A stretch of DNA of 9,346 bases, from IMG/VR virus record IMGVR_UViG_2778261360_000018; one strand, 5' to 3'. The notes below the pieces were generated by a model. The model was given only the letters and a program-made list of their open reading frames with translations. It was not told the origin of the DNA and ran no database searches. How positions within the stretch are numbered: position 1 is the first letter of the stretch; each line of letters opens with the position of its first letter. This document shows positions 3,678-8,472 of this stretch, in pieces. The DNA comes from a virus (Duplodnaviria; Heunggongvirae; Uroviricota; Caudoviricetes). The translations under genes were made by a program, and so were the position numbers.

Positions 3678-4495
3678 ACATACATATCCTGTTTACGTGC
3701 CCAGTCAGGGCGTTTAATAATTTCCACTCCGCCCCATTCATCGTTGATGCGGCATTCGTGATAGGTATTCAGATCCCGGCGGAACAGAGCGTGCCCGGCA
3801 TCGACATCCGGCGCATCCAGCTCGAACACGCGTACCGGATACCGACCACAATCAATGCTTTCGCTCACGGCAAGAAAGAAAAAACCATGCGGCTGACCAG
3901 TAACCCTCATTGCGCCTTCGCGGTACATTGCGTCCTGCACGTGGTAGCGGAATTCCTCGATGTGACGTGCAAAACGGTCCATATCTGCAACCTTTTTCAC
4001 GTCGACGATCACGTTGTGCTCGTTCAGCCATTTGTCTGGACGAATTCGGCACAACTCACCAGTCTCTTCATCGTTCCAGTACATTGACGCTTCGCAGTAA
4101 CCAGGTGCTTCCAACATCCAGCGTGCAGCCGGGTGAGCCATTGCGCTATCACGCATCAGCTCCAGTTTTCGCCACTGCTCGACATCAAGTACCGTAATAC
4201 CCATATCCGCCACATCACGAAGAAATGCTTCTTCGTCAGCTTTACCTTGTTTTGTCCGACGATCGAATTTCGGTGAAACGATGAAGCGCTTGTCGAATTC
4301 TCCAGGTTCCAGAAGCAGACAGTGCAATGCGGTTCCCATATCCAGTGCAGACTTTTTCTCTTCGTCTTCTGGTGCTGCCTGAACCCATTTAAGAAGCGCC
4401 GGATTCTTGGCAACCATGTCCAGTTGCGACTTACTCACGCCGTCACCGGCGTGGTAGTCTTCGTTGCTGATGTCGAAATAAATTCCCGGTTTCAT
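3674..4495 (-). CDS. PD-(D/E)XK-family exonuclease (RecE/exodeoxyribonuclease VIII-like, DUF3799-type), partner of the annealing protein
   Basis: 273 aa. N-terminal GIYFDISNEDYH, then D/E-rich blocks and IVDVKK resembling PD-(D/E)XK nuclease motifs. Coupled to both neighbours by ATGA overlaps (4492-4495 and 3674-3677). Shine-Dalgarno AGAGGGA upstream. Confidence 0.7.
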   Translation of the reverse strand: MKPGIYFDISNEDYHAGDGVSKSQLDMVAKNPALLKWVQAAPEDEEKKSALDMGTALHCLLLEPGEFDKRFIVSPKFDRRTKQGKADEEAFLRDVADMGITVLDVEQWRKLELMRDSAMAHPAARWMLEAPGYCEASMYWNDEETGELCRIRPDKWLNEHNVIVDVKKVADMDRFARHIEEFRYHVQDAMYREGAMRVTGQPHGFFFLAVSESIDCGRYPVRVFELDAPDVDAGHALFRRDLNTYHECRINDEWGGVEIIKRPDWARKQDMYV

Positions 4496-4793: not shown

Positions 4794-4946
4794 TCAGCCC
4801 TCCCATATCTCGTTATCGTTGGCCACATCGCGAGCTTCTTTGCTGACGAAAGCCCACTTAATGCCTTCCTGTAAGGTGCGGAACTTCCAGCTCATGAATC
4901 CGCATGCAGTAACGCAGTACCAACCGTTGATGATTTTCCACTGCAT
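4794..4946 (-). CDS. Hypothetical small protein (50 aa), first ORF after the pL-like promoter
   Basis: Below the 60-aa track cutoff; found by hand. ATG at 4946-4944 with GAGGT Shine-Dalgarno 8 nt upstream, stop TGA at 4796-4794. Translation MQWKIINGWYCVTACGFMSWKFRTLQEGIKWAFVSKEARDVANDNEIWEG has an aromatic/hydrophobic N-terminal half. Confidence 0.35.
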   Translation of the reverse strand: MQWKIINGWYCVTACGFMSWKFRTLQEGIKWAFVSKEARDVANDNEIWEG

Positions 4947-4952
4947 AACTTG

Positions 4953-5043
4953 TTACCTCGGTTTGTTACCGTTGAGGTAATAATTATGCGTATTTGGTTT
5001 GATGTCAATAGATATGAGTTAAAAAAATTACCCGTTAGGTAAT
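4953..5043 (-). promoter_or_regulatory. pL/OL-like leftward early promoter with two operator palindromes
   Basis: Minus-strand perfect -35 TTGACA (plus 5003-5008) with an AT-rich -10 candidate near 4980-4988. Palindromes gTTACC-gttga-GGTAAT (4965-4981, over -10/+1) and ATTACC-cgtta-GGTAAT (5027-5043, upstream of -35). Longer 7-bp arms TTACCTC/GAGGTAA at 4953-4959 and 4974-4980. Confidence 0.5.
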
Positions 5044-5050
5044 CGAATAG

Positions 5051-5079
5051 GCAATAAAAAAGCCGCCAGAAGGCGGCTT
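5051..5079 (-). terminator. Intrinsic terminator downstream of the repressor gene
   Basis: Stem AAGCCGCC / GGCGGCTT (5060-5067 / 5072-5079) with loop agaa; on the minus strand it is followed by TTTTATTGC (plus 5051-5059). Lies between the repressor stop (5100) and the pL-like promoter. Confidence 0.6.
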
Positions 5080-5099
5080 ACTTACTGAAAAATATGATT

Positions 5100-5684
5100 T
5101 TATTGTTTGTTTTTTTCGTTCTGGTTGATGACAAATTCAATGTAACTTTCGATCTTTGCCTTCTCTGTTTCAGGTAACAATGCGTAGCGCGAGCGATCAT
5201 AGTTGATGGTCGCAGGGTCGTGCGGGTGAATCAGTAATTCATAGCCGTGACGCCCGAATGCGGATGCAACATTCTCCAGGGTGGAAATGGAAACGCTGAC
5301 CTCATTGTTTAACAGGCGGCTGATTGTCACCTGGGCGACGCCGGATGCGCGGTGTAGTTTTCCCTGCGTTGAAAGGTCGCGGCTTTCGCTCATCCAGCGT
5401 TCCAGGTTGTGAGCCGCCAGCTGTCCAATGTCGCTTGGGCCGACAGGCTGAAAACCTTCCTGAGAAAGCGAGCGATCGATATCAAGCCAGTTACGGGGTT
5501 TATTGGCGGCAGCTTCAATTTTTCGCGCAACCTGGTCGCCGATAACCTTCTTGCCAAGAGCCCAGCGGTTTACCAGATTTGCCTGAGTTCCAAGTTTTTC
5601 TGCCATCCGCGTCTGAACACCATTGAATTCACGGTCGATCAAGTCGTTGAGATTTTGCCTGCGGACGTCCTGAATACTTTTCAT
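5100..5684 (-). CDS. Prophage immunity repressor, CI-like by position; two XRE-type HTH domains, no S24 peptidase domain
   Basis: 194 aa. HTH 1 about residues 20-65 (VQTRMAEKLGTQANLVNRWALGKKVIGDQVARKIEAA); HTH 2 about residues 105-150 (LSTQGKLHRASGVAQVTISRLLNNEVSVSISTLENVASAFG). No LexA/CI-type autocleavage module. Divergent from the cro-like gene across an operator-rich region; poor Shine-Dalgarno, as for lambda cI from PRM. Confidence 0.75.
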   Translation of the reverse strand: MKSIQDVRRQNLNDLIDREFNGVQTRMAEKLGTQANLVNRWALGKKVIGDQVARKIEAAANKPRNWLDIDRSLSQEGFQPVGPSDIGQLAAHNLERWMSESRDLSTQGKLHRASGVAQVTISRLLNNEVSVSISTLENVASAFGRHGYELLIHPHDPATINYDRSRYALLPETEKAKIESYIEFVINQNEKNKQ

Positions 5685-5738
5685 TTTCTGGAAAATCGCC
5701 TCATATATGAATCAGTAGATGATTCAATTTAAAGCAAT

Positions 5739-5813
5739 ATTACCCAACGGGTAAATGCACCCCATAGGTAACTATCCTTGATTTTTGTTACCTTATGGGT
5801 GAATATTTATTAT
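5739..5813. promoter_or_regulatory. OR-like divergent promoter/operator region between the repressor and cro-like gene
   Basis: Three related palindromes: ATTACC-caacg-GGTAAA (5739-5755), gcACC-ccata-GGTAAc (5757-5772), TTACC-ttatg-GGTgA (5788-5802). Candidate rightward promoter -35 TTGTTA (5785-5790), 17-nt spacer, -10 TATTAT (5808-5813). Confidence 0.5.
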
Positions 5814-5838
5814 CTGAAATAAATATCAGGCAATAGCT

Positions 5839-6069
5839 ATGAGCGATAACGGACATTTCGATTTCAAAAAGCACTGGCTTGCACTTACTCCGGATGAGCG
5901 TGAAGCCTTCGCACAGGAAGCCGGAACGACGAGTCACTATATCCAGACTCACTTAACAGGTAAGCGCAAAATGCCAGGTAAGGTATTGATGAATGGGCTT
6001 TTTAAAGCCTGTAAAACAAGACAATGGCTGCGCTCAAAAGCAGAACTGGCATACTTCTTCTACTCATGA
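5839..6069 (+). CDS. Cro/CII-like small HTH regulator, first gene of the rightward operon
   Basis: 76 aa. LTPDEREAFAQEAGTTSHYIQTHLTGKR is HTH-like. Sits where cro sits in lambda. Weak Shine-Dalgarno CAGG 8 nt upstream. Confidence 0.55.
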   Translation: MSDNGHFDFKKHWLALTPDEREAFAQEAGTTSHYIQTHLTGKRKMPGKVLMNGLFKACKTRQWLRSKAELAYFFYS

Positions 6070-6090
6070 TATCCAGCCACAACCCTCTGT

Positions 6091-6114
6091 AGACCGCCAT
6101 CCGGCGGTCTTTTC
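6091..6114 (+). terminator. tR1-like intrinsic terminator candidate after the cro-like gene
   Basis: Stem AGACCGCC / GGCGGTCT (6091-6098 / 6103-6110), loop atcc, followed by TTTC. The U-tract is short, so termination may be partial. Confidence 0.45.
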
Positions 6115-6219
6115 ATATCTATTCGCACCTTAAAGGTAATAAAAAACCAAATATGGTTGATCTTTTTTTTGTGTCAGCACAAAATAACCGTAATCCCAAT
6201 ACTAATAACAGGGCTTACC

Positions 6220-6420
6220 ATGGAAATCATTACACGTATTGATGCCGCAAAGCGCGGACTTAAACGCTACTACACCGGAAAAACATGTAAGCACGGACAT
6301 GACAGTGAACGCTGGGTTTACAACGGACACTGTGTTGAGTGCACCATGGAATCAAACCGTCGTATCAGGGCAGAGATTAAGCAGATCATGATTAATTCCT
6401 CCCCACAACATTCAAGCTGA
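6220..6420 (+). CDS. Small Cys/His-rich putative zinc-binding protein (66 aa), in the cII position
   Basis: MEIITRIDAAKRGLKRYYTGKTCKHGHDSERWVYNGHCVEC... with C-x-H-x-H-x9-H-C-x2-C spacing. ATG at 6220 chosen over the track's 6157 start, whose N-terminal extension is hydrophobic junk. Family not recognised. Confidence 0.5.
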   Translation: MEIITRIDAAKRGLKRYYTGKTCKHGHDSERWVYNGHCVECTMESNRRIRAEIKQIMINSSPQHSS

Positions 6421-6435
6421 TAGCGGAGATTAATC

Positions 6436-7227
6436 ATGAGCAGACATGCAACAGATTGGGCCTGGGAGACAGATCCAGGTAGCTCGTCATTAAAGCTCAT
6501 ACTGCTCTCGATGGCTGACAGAGCCGATGAATATAACCTTTGCTACCCCAGCATAGAACGCCTCGTTAAAGACACTTGCCTGAATAAAAAAACCGTGCAG
6601 GCCGGGCTTATATCGCTCATGAAAATGGGGCTTATTTCAGATACCGGAGAGAGAAAGGGAGCGACGAAAAGAGTGCGGGTTTTCTCTCTTAATATAACCA
6701 AAAACGGGAACATTAAAGGCAACCGGGAAGGGGGTAATGAACCCGAAAACGGTAATGTTACCGAAAACGGGAATATACCCAAAAACGGGGTGTTGAATGA
6801 TCCCAAAAACGGGATCCAGAACCAGTCATATAACCAGTCATTTAACCAAGAGAGGGAGAGCAGGACAAAAAGCGGGGATTCTGTGCCTCATGACCCCGGC
6901 GCAAACAACGCCGTGATGAATAACTTTGTTTCTCCTGGTGGGCCAGGGCAATTAGGCAAATTTGTCATGCATGAACAATGGCAGCCATCAGATGACTTTC
7001 TTCGGAAAAGCTCATTGCAGGGGATCTACCTGGACAGTCTGCCAACGGCACAGGAACTTGCAGAGTTCAGAATTTACTGGATGGCTGAGGGTAAGGCATA
7101 CCATCAGGCACAGTGGGAGCAGAAGCTGGCAAGGCGGCTGCAGATTAGCAGACAGAAGCAATCAACATTACCTGATAACAACGTTCCGCACTGGAACAGC
7201 CCTGAAGCGTGGGAGGATTTCTTGTGA
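6436..7227 (+). CDS. Replication initiator, lambda O-like (N-terminal winged-helix, low-complexity linker, C-terminal DnaT-like region)
   Basis: 263 aa. N-terminal LKLILLSMADRADEYNLCYPSIERLVKDTCLNKKTVQAGLISLMKMGLI is HTH-like; central N/G-rich linker is encoded by DNA iterons; C-terminal QWQPSDDFL...EFRIYWMAEGKAYHQAQWEQKLARRLQ. Located directly upstream of the P homolog. Confidence 0.75.
   Translation: MSRHATDWAWETDPGSSSLKLILLSMADRADEYNLCYPSIERLVKDTCLNKKTVQAGLISLMKMGLISDTGERKGATKRVRVFSLNITKNGNIKGNREGGNEPENGNVTENGNIPKNGVLNDPKNGIQNQSYNQSFNQERESRTKSGDSVPHDPGANNAVMNNFVSPGGPGQLGKFVMHEQWQPSDDFLRKSSLQGIYLDSLPTAQELAEFRIYWMAEGKAYHQAQWEQKLARRLQISRQKQSTLPDNNVPHWNSPEAWEDFL
6694..6847. repeat. Iteron array (putative replication origin) inside the O-like gene
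   Basis: Five direct repeats with core AAAACGG(G) starting at 6701, 6746, 6764, 6782 and 6806, with 18-bp periodicity for the central three; then a tandem CCAGTCAT(A/T)TAACC x2 at 6822-6847. Confidence 0.6.
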
Positions 7228-8009
7228 ACAACGTTTTTACCGCGATACAAAACCGTGACGGAGAAGCCCTTTCTCGCATGTCAGGTTATGAGCATCAGTA
7301 CGTCAACAATGACAATGTGGTGAACATGTCAGCAGAGAGGCTTGTTGATGCCCTTTTCAAACAGCTGAAACAACTGTTTCCGGCGGCAGTGGTAACCAAC
7401 CTGAAGACGCCAGAGCAGGAAGTAGCTGCAAAACAGCAGTGGATTGCTGCGTTTGCCGAAGGGGGGATCCGAACCCGTGAACAGGTTTCTGCTGGTATGC
7501 GCCACGCCCGCGCCAGTGAATCTCCGTTCTGGCCGTCGCCTGGGCAATTCATCAAGTGGTGTAAAGACAGCAAGATGGTTCTTGGCGTCACCATTGACGA
7601 TGTGATGGCGGAGTTTCACCGGTACAGCAAGGAAAAAAGTTTATATCCTGGTGGTCCCGAAAGATTCCCGTGGCGGCATCCTGTTATGTACTGGGTCGTA
7701 TGTGATACCCGCCGTGCAATGTATCAGCGCCAGCTTAGCGAGATTGAGGTTGAGAAACACGCGTGCAGGCTGCTCGATGATTGGGCGAAAAAGGTGGCTT
7801 CCGGACAGCAGATACCCGATCCGGTGATCAGCATACAGGCAAAGTCAGAGCCCATGAGTACACCTCCGGACACAGGGAGAGACGTTTACCATCCACTAGG
7901 GCGAAGTTTCGGGTGCATGCCTAACGCCGCCACCCTTGGGGGAATAACACCGGCGCAGTGGCTGATGGAGGAATACAGGCGGGGAAAGGAGGCAGGATTT
8001 ATCAAGTAA
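7224..8009 (+). CDS. Replication protein P-like (replicative helicase loader)
   Basis: GGIRTREQVSAGMRHARASESPFWPSPGQFIKWCKD closely matches my recall of lambda P (NGITTMEQVNAGMRVARRQNRPFLPSPGQFVAWCRE); SLYPGG...FPW...YWVV also matches. Start assigned to GTG 7224 (GTGA overlap with the O-like stop, Shine-Dalgarno GGGAGGA at 7211-7217) rather than the track's GTG at 7209. Confidence 0.9.
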   Translation: MNNVFTAIQNRDGEALSRMSGYEHQYVNNDNVVNMSAERLVDALFKQLKQLFPAAVVTNLKTPEQEVAAKQQWIAAFAEGGIRTREQVSAGMRHARASESPFWPSPGQFIKWCKDSKMVLGVTIDDVMAEFHRYSKEKSLYPGGPERFPWRHPVMYWVVCDTRRAMYQRQLSEIEVEKHACRLLDDWAKKVASGQQIPDPVISIQAKSEPMSTPPDTGRDVYHPLGRSFGCMPNAATLGGITPAQWLMEEYRRGKEAGFIK

Positions 8010-8014
8010 TACCA

Positions 8015-8034
8015 GCGCGATAGCGCATTTTTTT
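8015..8034 (+). terminator. Weak intrinsic terminator candidate after P
   Basis: GCGC-gata-GCGC (4-bp stem) followed by A then T7 (8028-8034). The stem is short, so this is low confidence. Confidence 0.3.
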
Positions 8035-8045
8035 ACGCCTCAGCA

Positions 8046-8125
8046 ATTACCTGTTGGGTAATAAAATATTCTAAATTCTATTGATTTCGTGTCTTATGTG
8101 GTTTTTAATTACCTTAGGGGGTAAA
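8046..8125 (+). promoter_or_regulatory. Second rightward operator-flanked promoter downstream of P
   Basis: Perfect palindrome ATTACC-tgttg-GGTAAT (8046-8062) upstream of -35 TTGATT (8081-8086); 17-nt spacer; -10 TTTAAT (8104-8109) overlapped by ATTACC-ttaggg-GGTAAA (8108-8125). Same motif family as the OL and OR sites. Confidence 0.45.
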
Positions 8126-8127
8126 TC

Positions 8128-8472
8128 ATGAGAAAACAGATACAGGCTCTTGGTCGACTCAAAACAGGCCAGATGAACAAAACAGAATCTGCGTATTGCC
8201 AGCACCTTGAGCTGCGTAAACGTGCAGGAGAAATCGTCTGGTATCGATTTGAGGGTATCAAGCTGCGGTTAGCTGACAACACGTTCTATACGCCCGATTT
8301 TGCTGTGATGCTCGCCACTGGCGAGATGGAACTGCACGAAGTGAAAGGTTTCTGGACCGACGACGCCAGGGTGAAAACCAAAGTCGCCGCAGATCAGTAT
8401 CCGTTCCGAATCATCGGGGTAACGGTTAAACCAAAGAAAGCAGGTGGTGGCTGGAAAATCGAAGAGTTCTGA
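8128..8472 (+). CDS. Small PD-(D/E)XK-fold nuclease-like protein (VRR-NUC/DUF1064-like)
   Basis: 114 aa. FYTPDF ... ELHEVKG ... TDDARVK fits a D...(D/E)xK active-site arrangement. Shine-Dalgarno AGGGGG 6 nt upstream of ATG 8128. Confidence 0.55.
   Translation: MRKQIQALGRLKTGQMNKTESAYCQHLELRKRAGEIVWYRFEGIKLRLADNTFYTPDFAVMLATGEMELHEVKGFWTDDARVKTKVAADQYPFRIIGVTVKPKKAGGGWKIEEF

Follow-up and report, generated by a model that had tools for sequence, protein, structure and literature searches.

The closest described counterparts of the DNA considered here are the podophages epsilon15, phiV10 and SPC32H. The DNA is a stretch of 9,346 nucleotides from a virus of the Caudoviricetes (IMG/VR record IMGVR_UViG_2778261360_000018). 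This stretch is termed the window, and the element in question is a short palindrome, (A)TTACC-N5-GGTAA(T), that recurs in it on either side of a repressor gene and again behind the replication gene P. Epsilon15, a Salmonella phage, has the same genome organisation and the same 17-bp palindrome, with A/T-rich operator spacers where those of the window contain G and C. Its GenBank record (AY150271.2; Kropinski et al. 2007, Virology 369:234) carries seven features labelled "protein_bind: repressor / lysogeny", all of which read ATTACC-N5-GGTAAT. Three of these lie in OL, one each precedes terS, the head operon and the tailspike gene, and the last, at 35906-35922, is the distal site of a pair that follows the replication genes. 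As the record marks perfect 17-mers only, it annotates neither the proximal site of that pair nor the OR sites, nor does it capture the paired 62-bp geometry. The site family is already known for epsilon15, and the operators of the window are not new for this phage family; with the basic fact annotated, the value added here lies in comparative detail and not in discovery. Absent from the epsilon15 and phiV10 annotation are the proximal partner site, the fixed 62-bp bracket that PL also has, the conservation over eight host genera and a fourth, weak site; these refine a system already known. The palindromic repeats are reportedly discussed in the 2007 paper on the epsilon15 genome. The phiV10 record holds no operator annotation, no operators were mapped in the paper on phage ZX5, and a search of full-text literature for the motif or for epsilon15 or phiV10 operators, whose reach did not extend to the original epsilon15 and SPC32H papers, yielded nothing relevant.

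SPC32H, also a Salmonella phage, encodes a homologous repressor, Rep, which is a tetramer with an N-terminal DNA-binding domain and without a RecA-cleavable domain. The Rep/Ant switch of SPC32H is the subject of Kim & Ryu (2013, J Virol) and Kim et al. (2016, PNAS), with PDB entries 5D50 and 5D4Z. According to secondary literature, a repressor of this type sits on DNA as a tetramer in which separate dimers contribute the two N-terminal DNA-binding domains of each pair. In the same literature, the middle domain, which resembles a helix-turn-helix (HTH), serves for dimerisation, only the N-terminal HTH is described as DNA-binding, and the C-terminus is a p53-like tetramerisation domain of a kind linked to DNA looping. 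Rep is inactivated by Ant, a tetrameric antirepressor that breaks up the Rep tetramer, and the mechanism of repression "has not been extensively characterized", again according to secondary literature. The operator pattern of the window occupies the same three regions in SPC32H. Binding of Rep at the post-replication sites is not known from the accessible literature.

Rep can be compared with other tetrameric repressors that have two DNA-binding pairs and a promoter flanked by operators whole helical turns apart, namely Rco of pLS20 (operators 75 bp apart), LacI and GalR. Rep and Rco share a p53-like tetramerisation fold. For Rep, the spacing alone suggests looping, and a loop of 62 bp would be unusually tight next to those of the Rco, LacI and GalR systems. 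In phage P1, a single repressor, C1, acts at many operators across the genome at separate transcription units, and immunity is modulated by an antirepressor. C1 is an unrelated protein that binds asymmetric 17-bp sites as a monomer, without promoter-bracketing pairs. In system design, Rep looks closer to P1 C1 than to lambda CI.

Positions 4900-8200 of the window are 97-98% identical to the phiV10-group Escherichia coli podophages (phiV10, BP9, PAS61 and phiv142-3), and ZX5 matches about 60% of this interval at 97.5%. By its sequence, the window comprises the immunity and replication functions of an E. coli prophage that resembles phiV10 and epsilon15 (Uetakevirus). Because the phiV10-group relatives belong to the genus Uetakevirus (epsilon15-like), the window does not come from a lambdoid siphophage, and the frame in which an earlier note had placed it, lambda plus a third operator, does not fit a podophage of the epsilon15/phiV10/SPC32H type with a tetrameric, antirepressor-inactivated Rep. 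The likeness to lambda consists of divergent PRM and PR with three operators, operators that overlap PL, a Cro-like first gene and a tR1-like terminator. Unlike CI-type repressors, Rep lacks an S24 autoprotease. Moreover, the PL operators form a 62-bp bracket where those of lambda are adjacent, and further operator-guarded promoters follow the replication genes and are found at late operons of relatives as well. Genes for N or Q antitermination were not recognised.

An operator family at conserved positions

The palindromes are read here as operators of Rep, and a candidate promoter behind gene P, termed P3, as a Rep-silenced promoter bracketed in the manner of PL, with a probability of about 0.8. 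Exact copies of TTACC-N5-GGTAA start at 4966, 5028, 5740 and 8047, which makes four in the window against 0.01 expected; none of 200 shuffles reached four, and every exact copy lies within the intergenic 9% of the window. With up to two mismatches allowed, there are 10 matches against 2.5 expected, 8 of them inside the 812 intergenic bases, where 0.5 would be expected. These counts exclude the case, considered in the earlier note, in which the motif is equally common in coding or shuffled DNA. The note had also listed seven clear sites as one operator family. All seven are present where it had placed them, and the enrichment and conserved half-sites bear out the family, although two of the sites are weaker than described. 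The site at 5788-5802 has one mismatch (right arm GGTGA), and the site at 5757-5771 is degenerate, with two mismatches in its left arm, GCACC. What makes the latter believable is solely that the homologous OR2 position is occupied by an exact site in epsilon15, SPC32H and the relatives from Klebsiella and Citrobacter. At 8109-8124, both arms are exact and the spacer is 6 nt long. Within each operator of 15-17 bp, the half-site centres are 10 bp apart, a distance that suits a pair of HTH domains.

A few other matches were considered and set aside. The only other match with a 6-nt spacer (6758-6773, one mismatch) lies inside the iteron-like CCNAAAACGG repeats of an O-like gene, and the two-mismatch coding matches at 4443 and 5949 are consistent with chance. 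A hairpin or terminator role for the palindromes was likewise rejected, given arms of just 5 bp that are AT-rich.

Homologous regions were compared in phiV10, epsilon15, SPC32H, Enterobacter phage Tyrion, Klebsiella phage BUCT711, E. coli 214-4 and six prophages taken from genome contigs (Superficieibacter, Erwinia dacicola, Klebsiella, two Citrobacter species and Scandinavium). In these 12 relatives, from eight host genera, TTACC-N5-GGTAA half-sites recur at the same three places. All have two or three OL sites just downstream of rep, three OR positions upstream of rep, and a pair of sites in the gap that separates the last replication gene from the one after it. The start-to-start distance of the post-replication pair is 61-62 bp in every relative, and that of the OL pair is 61-63 bp. 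In an alignment of the post-replication region from 12 sequences (the window and 11 others), the four operator arms, a GCGC/GCGC stem with its T7 run, the -35 core ATTGA and the operator-embedded GGT of the Shine-Dalgarno sequence are invariant, whereas the operator spacers and the terminator loop vary. Invariant arms around variable spacers are the signature of selection on half-sites contacted by a protein.

A candidate bracketed promoter behind the replication genes

Gene P stops at 8009 and is followed on the plus strand by a short terminator (8015-8034), made up of GCGC-GATA-GCGC and then T7, with a folding energy of -8.7 kcal/mol (z -2.3) and an annotation as putative terminator in phiV10. 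The distal operator of the post-P region, O3, is an exact match that reads ATTACC-TGTTG-GGTAAT (8046-8062); it lies 19 nt upstream of the -35 element, and its homologue in epsilon15 is the site at 35906-35922 annotated as protein_bind "repressor". The candidate promoter P3 (8081-8109, plus strand), found by eye, consists of a -35 element TTGATT (8081-8086), a 17-nt spacer that contains a ATGTGGTT box (8096-8103), and a -10 element TTTAAT (8104-8109) whose final T doubles as the first T in the arm of the proximal operator. This proximal operator, ATTACC-TTAGGG-GGTAAA (8108-8125), has exact arms and a 6-nt spacer. It covers the edge of the -10 element, the predicted +1 and the Shine-Dalgarno sequence, the last of these made up of the operator spacer and right arm (GGGGGT). 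The P3 operon opens with a gene that starts at an ATG at 8128 and encodes a DUF1064-type Holliday-junction resolvase (8128-8472, plus strand; Pfam DUF1064; PHROG 190 "Holliday junction resolvase", E 5.6e-43). Assuming a transcription start near 8116, the distal site would be centred near -62 and the proximal site would extend from about -7 to +9. The two operators are about 5.9 helical turns apart and lie on the same face of the DNA.

The layout of PL is identical: a distal operator, 19 nt, the -35 element, 17 nt, and a -10 element that shares its last T with the proximal operator, with the operators again 62 bp apart. The third, similarly built operator pair that had been proposed after P is therefore a real and conserved PL-like cassette, as the 12-sequence alignment and the shared geometry attest, and it should place the downstream genes under direct control of the repressor. 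The post-P region is most likely a Rep-clamped promoter for the resolvase operon, with the activity of P3 and its start site predicted from sequence.

The gene behind the cassette is not always of the same type. The window, phiV10, SPC32H and Klebsiella have a DUF1064-type resolvase, whereas epsilon15 (locus L007, 35987-36451) and Tyrion (locus L003, 1616-2080) have one of RuvC type, as Erwinia and Citrobacter werkmanii probably do as well, to judge by shared N-terminal coding sequence. The exchange amounts to a swap of functional analogues at a fixed promoter. Since the cassette stays constant while the resolvase type changes, its behaviour is that of a portable promoter placed on a mosaic boundary.

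The 6-nt spacer of the proximal site, correctly read in the earlier note, is a private 1-bp insertion and not a feature of the family. It stems from one extra G in a run of G (8117-8121), and the other 11 aligned sequences have N5; the closest genome, E. coli 214-4, reads TTACC-TTAGG-GGTAA. The prophage region is present in 530 of 5,426 complete E. coli genomes (about 10%), and none of the 530 carries a match identical to the window over the 51 nt at 8085-8135. In 23 of 25 sampled records, the match spans 50 nt against the 51-nt query. The phage records likewise contain no identical match. Either slippage produced the extra G as a private mutation, or it is a sequencing error in a homopolymer.

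Rep as the probable cognate regulator

The protein encoded at 5100-5684 on the minus strand (194 aa) is a full-length homologue of the SPC32H Rep structure (PDB 5D50), which it matches across residues 1-190 of 194 with an E value of 4e-42. It is 100% identical to the repressors of phiV10 and ZX5, and 42-43% identical to SPC32H Rep and epsilon15 gp38. Pfam assigns it to HTH_3 and YdaS-type HTH families alone and finds no Peptidase_S24 domain; the YdaS-type match is weak (residues 21-61, below the curated cut-off). By homology, its domains run from an N-terminal DNA-binding HTH through an HTH-like dimerisation domain to a C-terminal domain for tetramerisation and Ant binding. Of the interface aromatics, placed by alignment only, F184 corresponds to SPC32H F190 and is invariant, and Y181 corresponds to F187. 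The earlier description of a dual-HTH repressor thus stands as a description of the sequence, but only the N-terminal HTH is expected to read operators, the second being the dimerisation domain.

This protein is almost certainly the cognate regulator of the palindromes, as the earlier note had suggested. Its recognition helix, NLVNRW (residues 36-41), is invariant in an alignment of five Reps with 43-78% identity. The prophage Reps also carry NLVNRW, and with these included, identity to the Rep of the window ranges from 41 to 78%. The half-sites track this invariant helix. A search for relatives with a different operator specificity, on which covariation could be tested, found none; all full-length Rep homologues found share both recognition helix and half-site. 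In five distant loci from Paraburkholderia, Hydrogenovibrio and Thiomicrospira (L014-L018), which match Rep over the N-terminal ~70 residues only, there is no site pattern like that around full-length rep genes, with between none and two isolated one-mismatch matches. We infer that Rep binds at these particular sites. In the ZX5 paper, overexpression of the repressor abolished free phage and lowered holin and endolysin transcripts by 99.97-99.99%.

The window contains no LexA box. The ant gene and its LexA box lie outside it and were seen only in phiV10, where a LexA box, CTGTGTATTTATACAG, stands about 25 nt upstream of p24 (locus L006, ~20800-20900). The p24 gene is the homologue of epsilon15 gp19, the gene at the ant position of SPC32H. 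A one-mismatch Rep operator is present in the same divergent ant/tail-fiber region of phiV10.

A mechanism is suggested by these features. Each operator would be read by a pair of N-terminal HTH domains, and at both PL and P3 the promoter would be bracketed by two operators at a distance of 62 bp, or about six helical turns. Because a Rep tetramer has two DNA-binding pairs, it would be able to hold both operators at once and occlude RNA polymerase, and the most economical model has one tetramer doing so and burying the promoter. The short terminator ends the replication operon, so P3 would restart transcription into the resolvase operon, which would run on toward the packaging genes; in the lysogen, P3 would be silenced directly by Rep.

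Operators and promoters on either side of rep

Downstream of rep, the proximal OL operator, GTTACC-GTTGA-GGTAAT (4965-4981), is an exact match that is present in all relatives, 61-63 bp from the distal site, and shares an edge base with the PL -10 element. PL itself (4980-5008, minus strand) was found by promoter scan with 10 of 12 matches and has a -35 element TTGACA (5008-5003), a 17-nt spacer and a -10 element AATTAT (4985-4980); the string ctaTTGACA is conserved in relatives. The distal operator, ATTACC-CGTTA-GGTAAT (5027-5043), is also exact and lies 19 nt upstream of the PL -35 element and 62 bp from the proximal site. Between it and rep is the intrinsic terminator of the rep gene (5060-5079, minus strand), with an 8-bp stem and a T-run in the terminator scan and an annotation in phiV10. 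An isolated half-site, GGTAA(C) on the transcribed strand, falls inside the Shine-Dalgarno sequence GAGGTAA of the first PL gene (4952-4957) and mirrors the layout of P3, in which the Shine-Dalgarno sequence is embedded in the operator. In the relatives from Salmonella, Klebsiella, Citrobacter and Scandinavium, a third OL-like site, complete or nearly so, directly precedes the first PL gene.

Upstream of rep, three OR sites are arranged around the divergent PR and rep promoters. Nearest to rep is the distal, OR3-like site, the exact ATTACC-CAACG-GGTAAA (5739-5755), whose position about 55 nt upstream of the rep ATG is kept in all relatives. The middle, OR2-like site is the degenerate GCACC-CCATA-GGTAA (5757-5771), exact in some relatives, and the OR1-like site, TTACC-TTATG-GGTGA (5788-5802), overlaps the PR -35 element and spacer. 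Its single mismatch recurs, in that the GGTGA/TCACC variant is found at the OR1-like position in relatives. PR (5785-5813, plus strand) reads TTGTTA, 17 nt, TATTAT and was found by promoter scan with 9 of 12 matches. A tR1-like intrinsic terminator (6091-6110, plus strand), found by terminator scan and annotated in phiV10, lies further along the rightward operon.

Sites beyond the three regions

The count of three promoter regions in the earlier note proved too low, with a fourth, weak site inside the window and five further regions in relatives. The fourth was already recorded in that note as a weak copy after the tR1-like hairpin, and it is conserved in position in all relatives examined. 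It forms a module (6125-6175, plus strand) of a weak operator GCACC-TTAAA-GGTAA(T) at 6125-6139, a -35 element TTGATC (6147-6152), 17 nt, and a -10 element CAAAAT (6170-6175). The elements xxACC-N5-GGTAAT, ggTTGATC and aAAAT of this module are kept in phiV10, E. coli 214-4, Tyrion, BUCT711, Superficieibacter, epsilon15 and SPC32H. The module may serve the replication genes as a promoter that Rep influences. When the complete genomes of phiV10, SPC32H and epsilon15 were scanned, more exact or one-mismatch sites came up in five places: four of these precede terS, the head operon, the lysis cassette and int, and the fifth is the interval from ant to the tailspike gene. All 11 exact sites of epsilon15 are intergenic. 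Rep therefore looks like a global gatekeeper of the transcription units of the phage.

Near the terS gene, the operator pair lies inside the annotated terS open reading frame in phiV10 (locus L006, 87-119) and E. coli 214-4 (locus L019, 13856-13888), and upstream of terS in epsilon15. The start codon of phiV10-type terS may have been annotated too far upstream.

A second sequence element accompanies some of the operators. A box AT[AG][TA]GG[TA]T, typically ATGTGGTT, stands just upstream of the -10 element, and its distance from the Rep operator that precedes it is fixed at 47-50 or 59 nt. Such boxes are found in the P3, head-operon, tailspike and lysis promoter regions and also at PL of Tyrion and Erwinia, with positions in the window (8096-8103), phiV10 (L006, 3311, 20924, 24742 and 35119) and epsilon15 (L007, 2991, 19943 and 24754). 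All three plus-strand copies of ATGTGGTT in phiV10 lie in operator/promoter regions. The box may act as a spacer element of the promoter or as a site for an activator. An extended -10 element was considered as well; the TG of the box is not at -15/-14.

A wider model can be drawn from these sites, tentatively and with odds somewhat short of even. Rep tetramers would clamp a portable cassette by way of a micro-loop of about 62 bp, with the two operators exactly six helical turns apart, and would guard essentially every lytic unit in phages of the genus Uetakevirus (PL, PR, replication, resolvase, terS, head, tailspike and lysis). The ATGTGGTT box would be common to many of these units, and the programme would be a flat, repressor-gated one that has no lambda-like antitermination cascade. 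Serotype-converting phages that infect E. coli O157 and Salmonella belong to this phage family, and one antirepressor-controlled tetrameric repressor over several promoters would explain tight lysogeny without a cascade of the lambda type. Additionally, the 62-bp bracket is a small natural system on which the short-range bridging of DNA by a tetramer could be tested, and the conserved cassettes offer a ready-made set of orthogonal operator/promoter parts.

Alternative explanations of the post-P sites

Several points weigh against P3 as a promoter clamped by Rep. The earlier note had placed -35 and -10 elements at all three regions. Those of PL and PR were found by a strict sigma-70 consensus scan, and that of P3 has a -35 element conserved in all relatives, but P3 was not reported by the scan, since TTTAAT breaks the rule of an A at position 2. 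With so weak a -10 element, the promoter may need an activator. The half-sites of the proximal O3 operator in the window are 11 bp apart, which, if the extra G is real, may weaken binding. A 62-bp loop is energetically costly, so separate tetramers could bind the two sites, and the Cro-like protein may act at the same sites.

The alternative that survives best, though unlikely, has no promoter at 8081-8109 at all. The post-P pair and the dispersed sites would then be auxiliary anchors that raise the local concentration of Rep or form long-range loops with OL and OR, much as in lambda OL-OR octamerisation or at the flanking FL and FR sites of phage 186. The silence of the consensus scan at P3, the looping-type tetramerisation domain of the Rep tetramer and the single weak site after tR1, which has no proximal partner, all agree with anchoring. 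However, the cassette reproduces the geometry of PL base for base around an invariant -35 ATTGA, it sits after a conserved terminator and before a conserved Shine-Dalgarno sequence and ATG, and it remains constant while the downstream gene swaps between DUF1064 and RuvC types, as a portable promoter would.

Slightly less probable again is a scheme in which the P3 sites serve mainly the Cro-like protein (5839-6069) or another phage regulator, or in which P3 is an activator-dependent middle or late promoter with the ATGTGGTT box as its key element and the palindromes secondary. The first PR gene does fall in a "transcriptional repressor" PHROG, the box AT[AG][TA]GG[TA]T keeps a fixed 47-59 nt from the operators at the P3, head, tailspike and lysis promoters, and the P3 -10 element is weak. 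Control by Rep is nevertheless favoured by half-sites that are identical to the OL and OR half-sites flanking rep and that track the invariant Rep helix. Furthermore, Cro-type proteins normally share the operators of a repressor and do not replace it, and box and operators are not mutually exclusive.

Finally, the notion that the palindromes are chance AT-rich repeats, hairpins or terminators, or restriction-modification targets with no regulatory role, for which a weak hairpin score at 5740-5754 in the terminator scan and a phage-encoded MT-A70 methylase (also annotated in phiV10) could be cited, is effectively refuted by the excess of exact copies (4 found, 0.01 expected), the intergenic location of all sites, arms that stay invariant while spacers vary across eight host genera, and the fixed distance to promoter elements.

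Other features of the window

The gene order of the 9.3-kb window begins with a P4-type integrase, a leftward recombination operon and the leftward repressor gene and continues with a rightward operon. The latter consists of a Cro-like gene, a DnaT/O-like initiator, a lambda-P-like helicase loader, the DUF1064 resolvase gene and small accessory genes. The Cro-like small regulator, the first PR gene (5839-6069, plus strand), belongs to PHROG 35 ("transcriptional repressor", E 5.6e-13).

Within the O-like initiator gene, five iteron-like CCNAAAACGG repeats are arrayed at 6700-6815, and AAAACGG is found six times in the window against 0.6 expected. The array is probably the replication origin. 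A conserved 66-aa protein of unknown function (PHROG 1081) is encoded at 6220-6420, and the pattern of its Cys and His residues, C-K-H-G-H ... C-V-E-C, is suggestive of a zinc ribbon; as a matter of speculation, this protein is a candidate small transcription factor for the ATGTGGTT-box promoters.

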